Virus record (IMG/VR): IMGVR_UViG_2548877009_000004
Direction: 5' to 3' (one strand)
Length of the DNA stretch: 20,274 nt
DNA from: a virus
Lineage: Duplodnaviria; Heunggongvirae; Uroviricota; Caudoviricetes
In this document: positions 1,943 to 6,229 of the stretch, in pieces
How positions within the stretch are numbered: position 1 is the stretch's first letter
Layout: each line of letters opens with the position of its first letter
The notes under the pieces: generated by a model
The model's database searches: none
Told to the model about the DNA's origin: nothing
What the model saw: the letters and a program-made list of their open reading frames with translations, nothing else
Program-made: the position numbers and the translations under genes

Positions 1943-2737
1943 ATGAGCGAGAAATTAAAGATAGTCTATCGCCCATTACAAGAATTGTCACCGTATGCGC
2001 ACAACGCCAGGACGCACAGCCCTGAGCAGGTGGCACAACTGGTAGAAAGTATTAAGCAATTCGGCTGGACTAATCCGGTGCTGATTGACGAAAAGGGCGA
2101 AATTATTGCGGGTCACGGTCGTGTTATGGCGGCTGAAATGCTCAAAATGGATTCTGTTCCGGTCATTGTTCTGTCTGGCCTGACGGATGAGCAGAAAAAG
2201 GCGTACCGCCTGGCAGATAATCGCCTGCCGATGAATGCTGGCTGGGATGAAGATCTGTTGCGGATGGAGCTGTCGGACCTAATCAATGCTGATTTTGATG
2301 TCTCCCTGACAGGCTTCATCCCGACAGAAATTGATGAACTGTTGACGGATGTTTTGCCCGGTACAGGAAATGAGGAGGAGCCGTATACGACGAAAATTGA
2401 TACGCCTGTTTATGAGCCGTCGGGCGGTAAACCGGATATCAGTGAACTGTACGACGATACGAAAACTCAGGAGCTGATCAGCCGGATACGTTCGGCGTCC
2501 CTTGAGCCTGATATTGAGAAATTCCTCCTGTGTGCGGCAGAACGTCACACGGTGTTTAATTTCAGCAGAATTGCGGACTATTACGCTCACGCCCCCTCTG
2601 AAATTCAGTGCCTTTTCGAGGAGTCGGCGCTGGTGATCATTGATTATCAGCAGGCTATTGAAAATGGATTTGTCCGAATGACGCAGCGCATGGTGGAGAT
2701 CATGCATGGCGGGGAGGAGGAGGAGGAATATGCGTGA
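1943..2737 (+). CDS. ParB/Srx-like nuclease-domain protein (phage accessory protein)
   Basis: The N-terminal ~90 aa show the ParB N-domain pattern (IVYRPLQELSPYAHNARTHSPEQVAQLVESIKQFGWTNPVLIDEKGEIIAGHGRVMAAEMLKMDSVPVIVL). The C-terminus is an acidic tail (GGEEEEEYA). AAGG lies upstream of ATG 1943. Confidence 0.75.
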   Translation: MSEKLKIVYRPLQELSPYAHNARTHSPEQVAQLVESIKQFGWTNPVLIDEKGEIIAGHGRVMAAEMLKMDSVPVIVLSGLTDEQKKAYRLADNRLPMNAGWDEDLLRMELSDLINADFDVSLTGFIPTEIDELLTDVLPGTGNEEEPYTTKIDTPVYEPSGGKPDISELYDDTKTQELISRIRSASLEPDIEKFLLCAAERHTVFNFSRIADYYAHAPSEIQCLFEESALVIIDYQQAIENGFVRMTQRMVEIMHGGEEEEEYA

Positions 2738-3662
2738 TGATTTTTGCGCCTTTATTCTGACTCACGGGCGACCGGACAAAGTTCTGACTTACCGGACGTT
2801 GCGTCGTGCTGGCTATACCGGGAAAATTTTTATCGTTGTTGATGATGAAGATAAGACACGGCATCAGTACATGGCTGAATTTGGTGAACAGGTGCTGGTA
2901 TTTTCCAAAGCCGATATTGCCAGTCGTTTTGACGAAGCCGATAATTTTGGTGATCGCCGCTCAATTTTTTACGCCCGTAATGCCTGTTTCGACCTGGCAA
3001 AACTGGTCGGGTGTAAATACTTCATTCAGCTCGATGATGATTATCACGAGTTCCAGTTTCGGGTGGATCGCAACTATGACCAGGCCTATTTCCCGATAAG
3101 GAAACTGGATGCGATCCTTTCTGAAATGCTGGCGTATTACGAATCAATACCCGCGCTTTCCATCGCTATGTCGCAGGGCGGGGATTTTCTTGGTGACAAT
3201 GGCGGCCATGCTTCGTGGGTGAAACGCAAGGCAATGAACAGCTTTATCTGTTCGGTTGATCGACCGTTCTCATTCATGGGGCGCATTAACGAGGATGTGA
3301 ATACGTACACGAATCTCGGTCGCTGTGGTGAATTGTTTATGACGATCGGTGCTGTCCAGTTAGGGCAGAAACAGACGCAGAAAAACAGCGGCGGAATGAC
3401 CGAGCTGTATCTGGATTCCGGAACCTACGTTAAAAGTTTTTACTCCGTCATGTATTCGCCGTCGTGCGTAAAAATCTCACTGATGGGTGCCAGCCATAAA
3501 CGCATTCACCATCAGGTCACCTGGAACAACGCTGCAGTAAAAATCCTTCACGAAAAATACAGGAAGAAGACACCCTGCATATCAATGGGGGTGACAAATG
3601 ATTCCGTATTCGAAAGTCGAGTCTCTGGCAGCGTGCCGGATGACTGCACAACAAATCGCTGA
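2730..3662 (+). CDS. Soluble GT-A-fold (GT2-like) glycosyltransferase-like protein, function unknown
   Basis: Motif layout matches GT-A enzymes: FILTHGRPDK (cf. IIPTYNR), IFIVVDDEDK (cf. IVVDDGS), ARNACFDLAKLVGCKYFIQLDDDY (ARN...A + DxD). No hydrophobic transmembrane stretch is evident. The ORF track starts it at 2706; I prefer ATG 2730 because a perfect GGAGGAGGAGGA Shine-Dalgarno precedes it. Confidence 0.6.
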   Translation: MRDDFCAFILTHGRPDKVLTYRTLRRAGYTGKIFIVVDDEDKTRHQYMAEFGEQVLVFSKADIASRFDEADNFGDRRSIFYARNACFDLAKLVGCKYFIQLDDDYHEFQFRVDRNYDQAYFPIRKLDAILSEMLAYYESIPALSIAMSQGGDFLGDNGGHASWVKRKAMNSFICSVDRPFSFMGRINEDVNTYTNLGRCGELFMTIGAVQLGQKQTQKNSGGMTELYLDSGTYVKSFYSVMYSPSCVKISLMGASHKRIHHQVTWNNAAVKILHEKYRKKTPCISMGVTNDSVFESRVSGSVPDDCTTNR

Positions 3663-3849
3663 CGTTCTGGATGTTGATCTGAACCGACTGAAAGAAAATC
3701 GGGAAGCAATGACAGATTTTTATGCGGCCATCCGTAAGGGCAGAGCGAAAGGTGAAGCCGAGTTACGAGCGGCATTGTTTAAGCTTGCCAGAAAAGGGGA
3801 TGCCTTTGCTCTGCGCGAACTACTCAGGGTGGATAAAAATCAGGACTAA
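3598..3849 (+). CDS. Small putative DNA-binding protein (helix-turn-helix-like), possible packaging accessory
   Basis: 83-aa ORF with a GGGGGTGA Shine-Dalgarno 3-6 nt before ATG 3598. An HTH-like segment (TAQQIADVLDVDLNRLKEN) is present. It lies immediately upstream of terS and overlaps the 3' end of the preceding gene by 65 nt. Confidence 0.5.
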   Translation: MIPYSKVESLAACRMTAQQIADVLDVDLNRLKENREAMTDFYAAIRKGRAKGEAELRAALFKLARKGDAFALRELLRVDKNQD

Positions 3850-3852
3850 CTG

Positions 3853-4947
3853 ATGAGCAGACCGGACTGGGGGGCGTTGCAGCAGGAGTATATTGCTGAA
3901 TACACCCGCTCCGGTATATCTCCGGTGGCATGGTGTGAAGCAAGGGGACTGAACTACGCAACAGCCCGTCGTTACATCAAAAAAACTCCGAAAAATGCGC
4001 AGAAAGAAATGCGCAAAACTGCGCAAAAAAGTGCGCGAAAAAAAACTGCGCAGACTGCGCAAAGGCAGAACGGAAAATCTCAGAAAAAAAAGGCTGTATC
4101 CGATGCACTCCTGATTGAGGGGGACACGGAAGAAATTTCGTTCTGCCCCGATGAATTCGGTATTTCTGACCAGCAGGCAAAATTCGCCATGTTGGTTGCT
4201 CAGGGGAAAAAGCCGACAGAGGCATACCGACTGGCTGGTTATGAGGGGCAAGGTGCGACAGCTAACAGCAACGCCAGCCGTATGCTTAGAAATGCCAGGG
4301 TTTATCGTGCTATCAGCTACTTCCGCAATCAGTACCAGAAACGCTATACCGCAGACCTGGATTTACTGGTGAGCCAGTTGATGGCCATTGTCCAGGCCGA
4401 CCCCAATCAGTTGGCACAATTTCGCCGTGTTAACTGCCGTTATTGCTGGGGCGAGAATCATCTCTACCAGTGGCGTGATATTGCAGAATTCGATAAGGCT
4501 GCGGCACAGGCCTCCAGAGATGGTAAACCCGAGCCGGAATATGGAGGCCTCGGCTTTGTTGATAACGCCATACCCAATCCTGATTGCCCGAAGTGCTGCG
4601 GTGAGGGAACAGGACAGCTTTATATGGCTGATACCACACTGCTTGATGGGGATGCGCGGCAATTATATGCAGGGTCAAAGCTCGGAAAATACGGTGTTGA
4701 GATCCTGCTGGAGGATAAGGCTGCCGCCCGGCGTGAATTGTTGCGTTTGCTTTCTGCTGGCGGGGCATTATGTGCAGATAAGCGGCTACAGGAACTGGAA
4801 ATTGAACGGCGCAGAATAGAGAACCAGAAGCTGCGCAAAGAGATCGAAACGGTGGAGGATAATGAACATCCCCAGCCTGTGGCGATCAATATTAATGTGG
4901 TTGATGCCAGATTAAGGAGTGATGAAGATGATCTCTCCGACGCTTAA
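3853..4947 (+). CDS. Terminase small subunit (extended form with basic linker and Cys-rich zinc-ribbon-like region)
   Basis: N-terminal HTH (ISPVAWCEARGLNYATARRYIKK) and a small-terminase-like core (QQAKFAMLVAQGKKPTEAYRLAGYEGQGATANSNASRMLRNARVYRAISYF). CxxC ... CxxCC cluster (CRYCWGENH ... CPKCCGEG). Sits directly upstream of the large terminase. Confidence 0.78.
   Translation: MSRPDWGALQQEYIAEYTRSGISPVAWCEARGLNYATARRYIKKTPKNAQKEMRKTAQKSARKKTAQTAQRQNGKSQKKKAVSDALLIEGDTEEISFCPDEFGISDQQAKFAMLVAQGKKPTEAYRLAGYEGQGATANSNASRMLRNARVYRAISYFRNQYQKRYTADLDLLVSQLMAIVQADPNQLAQFRRVNCRYCWGENHLYQWRDIAEFDKAAAQASRDGKPEPEYGGLGFVDNAIPNPDCPKCCGEGTGQLYMADTTLLDGDARQLYAGSKLGKYGVEILLEDKAAARRELLRLLSAGGALCADKRLQELEIERRRIENQKLRKEIETVEDNEHPQPVAININVVDARLRSDEDDLSDA
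3996..4061 (+). repeat. Six direct TGCGCR repeats phased by A-tracts inside terS
   Basis: TGCGCA/TGCGCG at 3996, 4010, 4020, 4032, 4047 and 4056, spaced 9-15 nt, each followed by an A-run. This stretch encodes the basic low-complexity linker AQKEMRKTAQKSARKKTAQTAQRQ. Confidence 0.7.
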
Positions 4948-6229
4948 TGTGCCTCAGGCGCGATTTCTTTCAATGCCCCATAAATTTAAAGCCTATATTG
5001 CTGGTTTTGGCTCGGGCAAAACATGGGTTGGGTGTGGCGGCATATGCAAGGGGATTTGGGAGCATCCAGGTATAAATCAGGGATATTTTGCGCCAACGTA
5101 TCCCCAAATTCGCGATATTTTTTACCCTACAGTGGAAGAAGTTGCTGCTGACTGGGGATTGAACGTAAAAATTAATGAGGGAAATAAAGAGGTTCACTTT
5201 TATTACGGACGCCAGTATCGGGGAACCACTATCTGCAGATCGATGGAGAAGCCACAAACGATCGTCGGTTTCAAAATTGGTAATGCGCTGGTGGATGAAC
5301 TGGACATTTTGCCGAAGGAAAAAGCCAGAACGGCGTGGCGCAAGATAATTGCGCGTATGCGTTATAAGATTGATGGACTTCGCAACGGTATTGACGTTAC
5401 AACCACGCCGGAAGGATTCAAATTTGTCTACGAGCAGTTTGTTAAAGCCGTGCGTGAAAAAACAGAGCTGGCCTCACTGTATGGTCTGGTGCAGGCATCT
5501 ACTTTCGATAATGAAAAGAACCTGCCAGCAGATTACATTCCTTCACTTCTTGAATCATACCCTCCAGAGCTGATTAAAGCCTATCTTCTAGGACGGTTTA
5601 CTAACCTGACAAGTGGTACTGTTTACCATCAGTTTGACCGGAAACTGAATAATTGCGAAGAAGTGGAGCAGCCAGGGGAGCCGATTTATATTGGGATGGA
5701 TTTTAACGTTGGAAAGATGGCGGGAATCGTCCATGTGCTGCGTTTGGGGCTTCCATGTGCGGTAACTGAAATCATCAATGCCTACGATACGCCGGATATG
5801 ATCCGCATCATTAAAGAACGCTTCTGGCTGTATGATGGGAATGATTACCGGAAAGTGAGGGAAATTTATATTTATCCAGATGCTTCCGGGGATTCCAGAA
5901 AATCAAGTAACGCAAGTACGACGGATATAGCCCAGCTTAAGCAGGCTGGATTTAACGTTGTGGTGAACAGCTCGAACCCGCCAGTAAAAGATCGCGTTAA
6001 CTCAATGAATGCAATGTTCTGCAATGCCAATGGTGAGCGTCGCTATAAAGTTAATGTGAAGCGTTGCCCGTTATATGCCGAATCTCTGGAGCAACAGGTC
6101 TGGGATGAGAAGGGGGAGCCTGATAAAAAATCTGGCAATGATCACCCGAATGATGCCGGAGGTTATTTCATCGTTAAGCAATTCCCTATTGTCAAACCGA
6201 CCGGAAGAGTCACATCACTTCGGATTTAA
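4928..6229 (+). CDS. Terminase large subunit (ATPase/nuclease)
   Basis: Walker A-like motif AGFGSGKT near the N-terminus. Size (~433 aa) and position after terS fit. AAGGAG at 4914-4919 lies 8 nt before ATG 4928; the ORF track starts at GTG 4919. Confidence 0.88.
   Translation: MISPTLNVPQARFLSMPHKFKAYIAGFGSGKTWVGCGGICKGIWEHPGINQGYFAPTYPQIRDIFYPTVEEVAADWGLNVKINEGNKEVHFYYGRQYRGTTICRSMEKPQTIVGFKIGNALVDELDILPKEKARTAWRKIIARMRYKIDGLRNGIDVTTTPEGFKFVYEQFVKAVREKTELASLYGLVQASTFDNEKNLPADYIPSLLESYPPELIKAYLLGRFTNLTSGTVYHQFDRKLNNCEEVEQPGEPIYIGMDFNVGKMAGIVHVLRLGLPCAVTEIINAYDTPDMIRIIKERFWLYDGNDYRKVREIYIYPDASGDSRKSSNASTTDIAQLKQAGFNVVVNSSNPPVKDRVNSMNAMFCNANGERRYKVNVKRCPLYAESLEQQVWDEKGEPDKKSGNDHPNDAGGYFIVKQFPIVKPTGRVTSLRI

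Follow-up and report, generated by a model that had tools for sequence, protein, structure and literature searches.

A short-repeat array inside terS as the probable recognition element of a prophage pac site

The Caudoviricetes record IMGVR_UViG_2548877009_000004 (20,274 bp, analyzed whole and called the window here; positions are counted from its first letter) carries a small terminase gene, terS, on the plus strand at 3853..4947, and within that gene a cluster of six hexamers, TGCGCA or TGCGCG (together TGCGCR), at 3996..4061 (no strand assigned). A first-pass annotation made from the letters alone had proposed this array as a candidate terminase recognition site, or pac, and comparative evidence now strongly supports that proposal, both through co-variation within three families of TerS bodies and through homology to the PacA protein of phage P1. 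We consider it probable that the six clustered and conserved hexamers are the element of this prophage's pac site that is recognized by the N-terminal helix-turn-helix (HTH) domain of TerS.

The small terminase gene and its hexamers

In the product of terS (364 aa) an additional HTH stands at the N-terminus, followed by a basic linker and by a Terminase_2 core that contains a CxxC...CxxC insertion. The core (aa 122-316; 4216..4800, plus strand), which holds the family's own HTH and oligomerization region together with the Zn-ribbon-like insertion, matches Pfam PF03592 (Terminase_2) with 36.1 bits against a cutoff of 26.1; the protein also matches PHROG 51 (“terminase small subunit”) at E 6e-75, and many of its approximately 1,740 homologs carry the name “terminase small subunit” in their sources. 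The start of terL (4919..6229, plus strand) overlaps the end of terS, and its product, the presumed nuclease and motor, matches Terminase_6N (E 3.6e-32) and Terminase_6C (E 3.4e-10); a DUF4055 portal, a MuF-like protein and a P22-type coat protein follow in that order. The PF03592 match above the gathering score and the immediately downstream terL identify the protein, at the level of sequence, as a Terminase_2 small subunit.

The first 44 residues (...GLNYATARRYIKK; 3853..3984, plus strand) form a putative three-helix HTH, a PacA-N-like module as judged from an AlphaFold2 model, hhalign and tblastn. This domain (...GISPVAWCEARGLNYATARRYIKK) lies outside the Terminase_2 match. The AlphaFold2 model has a predicted local distance difference test (pLDDT) score of 81.5 and places helices at residues 6-20, 24-31 and 35-38. 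Pfam gave no significant family for TerS aa 1-105, and a profile search of PDB sequences with the domain returned only matches with E above 0.1, among them the HTH of the IstA transposase at 0.37.

The codons of the array encode the basic linker KNAQKEMRKTAQKSARKKTAQTAQRQ, just past the N-terminal HTH. Copies of TGCGCA start at 3996, 4010, 4020, 4047 and 4056 and the single TGCGCG at 4032, exactly as the first-pass annotation had placed them, with start-to-start spacings of 14, 10, 12, 15 and 9 bp. The total number of TGCGCR matches in the window is unremarkable (29 over both strands, vs. 30.5 in shuffled sequences); what stands out is their clustering, since six of approximately 18 distinct sites fall into the array, and the densest 66-bp cluster holds six copies in the real sequence vs. 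one to three in 300 first-order Markov simulations, far above chance. The nearest sites outside the array start at 3812 and 4653, the former being a solitary TGCGCG (3812..3817, plus strand) 184 bp upstream of the array and within an open reading frame (ORF) at 3598-3849. Inspection of the letters of 3996-4061 found no GATC. Across the family the common spacings are 9, 14, 12, 10 and 7 bp, and the extended consensus is A-rich / C-TGCGCA-R-A.

The array is embedded in an A-tract-rich stretch (3979..4091, no strand assigned) with seven runs of at least four A, and A makes up 49% of 3975-4095 compared with 27% of the window; these A-tracts make the stretch a candidate for intrinsic bending. Four of the six hexamers, not all of them, run directly into three or more A, and the claim of an A-tract behind every copy is to that extent only partly right. 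Likewise, the 9-15 bp spacing described earlier is correct, but the helical phasing read into it is approximate at best and not strict; it is the centers of the seven A-tracts that lie approximately 11-12 bp, or multiples of that distance, apart. Tandem Repeats Finder reports degenerate periods of 12, 24 and 36 bp in the array. The palindromic hexamers can also pair with their neighbors: plus-strand RNA of 3975-4080 folds at -29.5 kcal/mol (z = -3.58), and on the minus strand 3996-4062 contains three hairpin-plus-T-run matches to the intrinsic-terminator consensus, with stems of 6 bp.

Conservation of the array and its match to the N-terminal domain

Five of the six copies are read as xxT-GCG-CAR (Ala-Gln or Ala-Arg), while copy 2 lies off-frame, as ATG-CGC. 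A coding repeat should have a constant unit, with a length that is a multiple of three, kept in one frame; the spacings here are irregular and copy 2 breaks the frame. When the same peptide was re-encoded with synonymous codons drawn from the window's own codon usage, no trial gave more than four hexamers, so that five or more were seen in 0 of 20,000 trials, against the six of the real sequence. The residue encoded at copy 2 varies among Met, Leu and Val in relatives (ATG, CTG, GTG), always keeping the TG of the hexamer.

The same preference for the DNA word over the peptide is seen at greater distance. Prophages of Serratia fonticola, Superficieibacter and Buttiauxella, whose TerS proteins are 53-55% identical to that of the window, have four or five exact TGCGCA copies at the same place, although these copies sit in two or three frames and the linker peptides differ. 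A Klebsiella phage with the same HTH type has six TGCGCA copies, an Aeromonas phage likewise keeps the array (five to seven copies in the Aeromonas-type relatives), and distant relatives of the same HTH type carry four to eight copies at the equivalent place. Among 91 non-redundant sequences of this HTH type, TGCGCA falls 376, 81 and 28 times into the three reading frames, and 82 of the 91 use at least two of them. Such use of every frame is not something that a peptide repeat can account for. In 49 distinct near relatives, diversity (pi) rises from 0.038 in the hexamer columns to 0.09-0.14 in the linker that comes after the array, and third codon positions elsewhere in the gene reach 0.157; the array and the N-terminal domain are much less variable than the linker just downstream. 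The dual constraint suggested at the outset, on a stretch that encodes a basic linker, is therefore borne out by the three-frame conservation, the codon resampling and this comparison among related prophages, and the sequences indicate that the array is constrained as DNA and not as protein.

Whole repeat units have been gained or lost relative to window positions 4020-4061 in several relatives (seven, five, four and five copies in L030, L061, L068 and L071). Such differences show that the array expands and contracts rapidly, and this is a plausible way for all copies to change in concert at a switch of specificity. Across the array (3975-4095) the plus strand is open in all three frames, and many database versions of TerS (entries P0008-P0042 and P0121-P0240) are frameshifted inside its A7-A9 runs, after which they either return to frame or end as fragments of 44-83 aa; these frameshifts could be homopolymer sequencing errors, real pseudogenes or slippage products. 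A search of a 5.8-billion-protein set with a 47-aa domain profile returned almost only such 44-83 aa fragments, several of them frameshifted at the array, and was of no use for judging diversity. A role for the hexamer as a restriction-modification or methylation target (GCGC/FspI) was considered and dropped, as relatives use the non-palindromic TGCGAAT and the motif follows the HTH type.

The link between hexamer and HTH comes down to one residue. Arg39 (codon CGT at 3967..3969, plus strand), in the third helix of the N-terminal domain (TA-R-RY), co-varies with position 5 of the hexamer. Among 158 non-redundant sequences containing domain plus array, TGCGCA is the dominant word in 99 of 99 with TA-R-RY, and TGCGAA/TTCGCA is found in 58 of 58 with TA-K-RY or TA-K-RH; the K-type site often takes the form TGCGAAT or the palindrome TGCGAATTCGCA, and K-type arrays consist largely of direct repeats. 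Klebsiella phage RothC and Yersinia vB_YenM_30.14 are among those with a TGCGAAT array. Within this sample the hexamer type thus tracks a single third-helix residue perfectly, one residue to one base. Three TerS body families were delimited by BLAST clustering of the part past the linker, and the rule is obeyed in every one of them; at least eight switches between Arg and Lys are required on a neighbor-joining tree of 62 distinct domains with the trait column masked. One pair is particularly telling: the domains of L140 (Arg) and L148 (Lys) are 97.6% identical outside that residue, and their arrays differ. Since phages of Klebsiella pneumoniae occur with either type, host genus is not the explanation.

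Domain and array also travel together. In tblastn searches the same domain begins small terminases whose bodies differ greatly, in Stx-converting, Klebsiella, Yersinia and Aeromonas phages, with a weak match in the P1-like phage D6; in each of these genes except that of D6 a short-repeat array directly follows the domain, and the repeated word differs. No protein other than a small terminase subunit was found to carry the domain, which is joined to three or more unrelated TerS bodies. A search by pattern alone gives a similar picture, with 58 of 81 triple-TGCGCA arrays sampled from viral contigs lying within 400 nt of the domain (one more was lost at a locus end). Conversely, one and the same TerS body carries four types of N-terminal cassette in relatives. 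Two unrelated N-terminal HTH families that sit on the TerS body of the window come with different words in the same position. One (L089, L090, L387-L403) has three to five GGGGCA(A) and then two or three inverted TGCCCC; the other (L002, L386) has two copies of GTTTCCAC and then two of GTGGAAA(C), an array of the GTTTCCAC/GTGGAAAC kind. A third HTH (HGVAESTLRKRIASGGW) is accompanied by TGCGCA repeats near position 2120 of L188. Related cassettes are present in Stx-converting, Klebsiella, Yersinia, Serratia and Aeromonas phages, and the terS 5' region was found in 883 of 5,426 complete E. coli genomes. E. coli CFSAN061771 and Shigella flexneri SFBU0723 have a terS identical to that of the window. 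Taken together, HTH and array appear to form a portable specificity cassette that is swapped among unrelated TerS bodies.

A variant of this cassette is found in Stx phages of the 933W-like kind (P27 / WGPS9; L101 and L102, terS nt 130-190 and 230-270), which have the same N-terminal HTH with the helix TARTRIK. Behind it stand four [C/T]GATCAT words at a 12-bp period, which are Dam sites and encode IDHE, IDHK, TDHE and IDHD, and these are followed by two TGCGCA in L101 and by one TGCGCA plus one TGTGCA in L102. Judged by their words, arrays of the Stx/933W type bridge the TGCGCA kind and the TGATCA kind of P1, and a Dam-sensitive pac site is predicted for Stx-converting phages at the GATCAT repeats. 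Phage 933W, whose TerS has the same N-domain as that of the window, performs generalized transduction, and its DNA seems to be terminally redundant (PMC3752737).

The prophage Rac-SA53 (L001, 2912-3070) provides a natural example of the converse situation. Its terS is annotated as a fusion produced by deletion, the N-terminal HTH is gone, and three of the five leftover hexamers have one substitution each (TTCGCA, TGCGCT, TGCCCA), which is about the background divergence of the gene. This decay is consistent with relaxed constraint after loss of the reader domain. Homology to the window begins at 4005 in Rac-SA53 and at 4146 in vB_Apl-pPE4, i.e., breakpoints lie in or just after the array.

The array as a proposed packaging site, and the alternatives

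The work on P1 pac and PacA includes that of Sternberg and Coulby in 1987 and of Skorupski et al. in 1992 and 1994. In P1, pac covers 161-162 bp within pacA and comprises seven TGATCA/G hexamers (PMC10028697; GenBank AF234172 annotation), and these seven hexamers are the experimentally defined pac site, in which Dam methylation controls cleavage (PMC10028697). They lie at pacA nt 194-233 and 324-352, from codon 65 on, on either side of the annotated cleavage sites (nt 276-285) and of an IHF site. An hhalign comparison of 13 lambdoid TerS N-domains with the PacA N-termini of P1 and D6 gave a probability of 97.7% and E 1.5e-12 over 44 of 46 columns (pairwise BLASTP of the N-domain against PacA is weak, E 0.11), and the profile match indicates that the N-terminal HTH of TerS is homologous to the PacA N-terminus. 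The layout is alike as well: in both genes a hexamer array follows the HTH codons (in the window the HTH ends at nt 132 and the array occupies nt 144-209; in P1 the HTH ends at approximately nt 120), and in both, palindromic 6-bp words lie in the 5' third of the small-subunit gene, in DNA that encodes protein at the same time.

The picture that we infer from this is as follows. TerS would oligomerize through its Terminase_2 core, and its flexibly tethered N-terminal HTH domains would each read one hexamer, with Arg39 in the third helix reading position 5. Four to eight weak sites in A-tract DNA would give avidity, the DNA bending and wrapping on the TerS oligomer (a model borrowed from SF6/SPP1; PMC4737164), and TerL would then be recruited to make a first cut near the array, from which headful packaging would begin. 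The added sequence-specific HTH would supply the specificity that the canonical Terminase_2 DNA-binding domain is missing. We are evenly divided over a broader proposal, namely that a DNA-binding domain has its cognate site within its own gene, HTH and hexamers constituting a self-contained, portable packaging-specificity cassette which has moved among at least three unrelated TerS bodies, whose repeated Arg/Lys switches were matched by concerted change of all four to eight hexamers (TGCGCA to TGCGAA), and of which the Dam-site arrays of Stx/933W phages and, more distantly, P1 are variants.

Several observations weigh against the hexamers being the pac element read by this domain. The count of eight switches comes from a short, noisy 41-column tree, and the Fisher p-value of the co-variation (2e-44) ignores phylogeny. 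Residue 39 is not the sole determinant, because P1 PacA has TARRY yet reads TGATCA. Even in near relatives the array is not invariant: copy number ranges from four to seven, copies 2, 5 and 6 are sometimes one base off, and in many of these relatives copy 2 is TGTGCA and copy 6 is TGCACA. The HTH fold is called from a small model and weak, non-significant matches (when Foldseek compared the AlphaFold2 model with PDB, every hit was an HTH domain and every E lay above 0.4, the neighbors being IstA transposase, Aca1, DeoR and Fis). The hexamer of the window, TGCGCA/G, does not contain GATC and hence would not be under Dam control, and the window has one six-copy cluster in place of the 4+3 arrangement around the cut in P1; because both features are absent, the array perhaps makes up no more than a part of pac, or is a binding site whose role is a different one. 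No second half-site like that of P1 was found among the TGCGCR sites of the window. Finally, no report of virion DNA ends, TerS binding or cleavage for this phage family was found in the searchable literature, which is incomplete. GenBank record boundaries were considered as possible packaging ends and proved uninformative: the record of vB_EcoP_phi346 is cut 786 nt into terS, and that of Klebsiella phage RothC starts 455 bp upstream.

Another role for the binding site is the first alternative to be weighed. TerS might bind its own gene through the HTH to control terS and terL, the array being an autoregulatory operator with no part in the start of packaging; co-variation and modularity show only that the hexamers are read by the HTH and say nothing about the effect of that binding, and the site lies in the 5' part of the gene, where a bound protein could block transcription. 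We regard such an operator as improbable, given that the homologous PacA/hexamer system of P1 is a proven pac, that a domain confined to small terminase subunits with at least three unrelated bodies is a better fit to packaging specificity, and that no promoter-like site was found in 3400-4400. The short repeats at the junction of module and body could instead serve as a recombination linker that promotes shuffling between phages, as the breakpoints at 4005 and 4146 and the presence of the same cassette on many bodies might suggest. Breakpoints at this place would, however, be expected just as much if the HTH has to move along with its site, and recombination leaves both the hexamer-HTH residue link and the distinct arrays of unrelated HTH families unexplained. 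As an explanation of the array it is very unlikely, though such a role may coexist with recognition.

The remaining two alternatives would dispense with a protein reader altogether. Hairpins formed by the array could act as tandem minus-strand terminators of antisense transcription or as modulators of translation in the mRNA, an idea encouraged by the three terminator-like sites, the RNA fold at z = -3.58 and the inverted copies beside A-runs that are also found in the GGGGCA/TGCCCC and GTTTCCAC/GTGGAAAC arrays. The stems are just 6 bp, however, and conserved structure should allow compensatory variation, yet the hexamer stays the same between E. coli and Aeromonas and changes only together with the HTH residue; furthermore, the direct TGCGAAT repeats of the K type cannot all pair. 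We give little credence to this explanation: the hairpins and the terminator-like matches are real but look like by-products. Last, the array could have arisen by duplication or slippage of a (T/S)AQK unit in a low-complexity coding linker and have no DNA function at all. The degenerate 12-, 24- and 36-bp periods are in keeping with this, the variation of whole units between four and seven copies in near relatives indicates that slippage or unequal exchange does occur, and five of the six copies share a frame in which they read Ala-Gln or Ala-Arg. Against it stand the use of all three frames in relatives, the failed codon resampling, the retention of the hexamer where linker peptides differ and the dependence of its type on a single HTH residue, and with these frame and co-variation data a slippage-generated coding repeat appears largely refuted and is scarcely credible as the whole explanation. 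Thus, recognition of the hexamers by the TerS HTH as part of pac remains the reading we prefer.

The genes upstream of terS add some features of their own. The 83-aa ORF at 3598-3849, just 5' of terS, matches only the middle of PHROG 309, another small-terminase family (positions 145-218 of 319, E 8e-23), and may be what is left of a terS that has been replaced, or else encode a small packaging protein of its own. Directly upstream of terS are an ORF with a ParB_N domain (1943-2737; PHROG 620) and one for a TET-associated glycosyltransferase (2706-3662; Pfam TAGT), which also matches PHROG 842, “beta-glucosyl-HMC-alpha-glucosyltransferase”; a trkG-like potassium transporter gene (330-1805) precedes both. 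By their domain matches the ParB_N and TAGT genes look like DNA-hypermodification genes, and neither TET nor an enzyme forming hydroxymethylcytosine (hmC) is visible among the Pfam and PHROG matches of the window proteins.

It has long been puzzling how small terminases single out viral DNA, the DNA-binding domain of the best-studied Terminase_2 proteins, those of SF6/SPP1, being weak and non-specific (PMC4737164), and a natural switch of one residue to one base makes recognition directly testable. If the broader cassette proposal is true, a recognition code could be read in a large share of enterobacterial prophages to predict their pac sites and, with them, the start points of lateral and generalized transduction; a pac site of known position and orientation in turn predicts which neighboring chromosomal genes are moved by lateral transduction. 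It would also allow packaging signals to be designed or disabled in phage-based delivery vectors, as has been done for P1, where the pac hexamers have already been recoded synonymously (PMC10028697). We found no description of TGCGCA/TGCGAA arrays as pac, or of the domain-plus-array cassette, in the searchable part of the literature, which is incomplete.

Comparison with known packaging systems

The small terminases of SPP1 and SF6 have a Terminase_2 DNA-binding domain that is weak and non-specific and does not read the box repeats sequence-specifically (PMC4737164). The SPP1/SF6 pac (pacL, pacC, pacR) with its G1P protein and the system described here share the same Pfam TerS core, a pac that overlaps the start of terS (putatively so in the window) and repeats in bendable DNA. 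They differ in that the TerS of the window has an added N-terminal HTH that apparently reads a defined hexamer, which, if true, would make it a sequence-specific exception to the model in which Terminase_2 TerS acts non-specifically, by conformational selection.

Other well-known systems share single features with the array. P22 and Sf6, which the first-pass annotation had offered as analogs, have pac inside terS and package by the headful mechanism; the pac of P22, however, is a single asymmetric element of approximately 22 bp in the middle of gene 3 and not a hexamer array, and the TerS families of both phages are unrelated to that of the window. In lambda, cosB (R1-R3 plus the IHF site I1) consists of short element copies that are read by the N-terminal winged HTH of gpNu1 with bending of the DNA, but lambda uses a cos system with fixed ends, cosB lies outside coding sequence, and its HTH family differs from that of the window.

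The analogy with P22 and Sf6 therefore gives way to P1, whose pac fits best, with a homologous N-domain and a hexamer array at the equivalent place in pacA. The relationship is confined to this part of the machinery: the TerS body of the window is of the Terminase_2 type and unrelated to the rest of PacA, and its TerL (Terminase_6N/6C) has no detectable similarity to PacB (best BLASTP E 0.82). It seems likely, as far as comparison of the sequences can tell, that the array is a variant of the P1-type pac, one that shares the PacA N-domain but uses a different hexamer.

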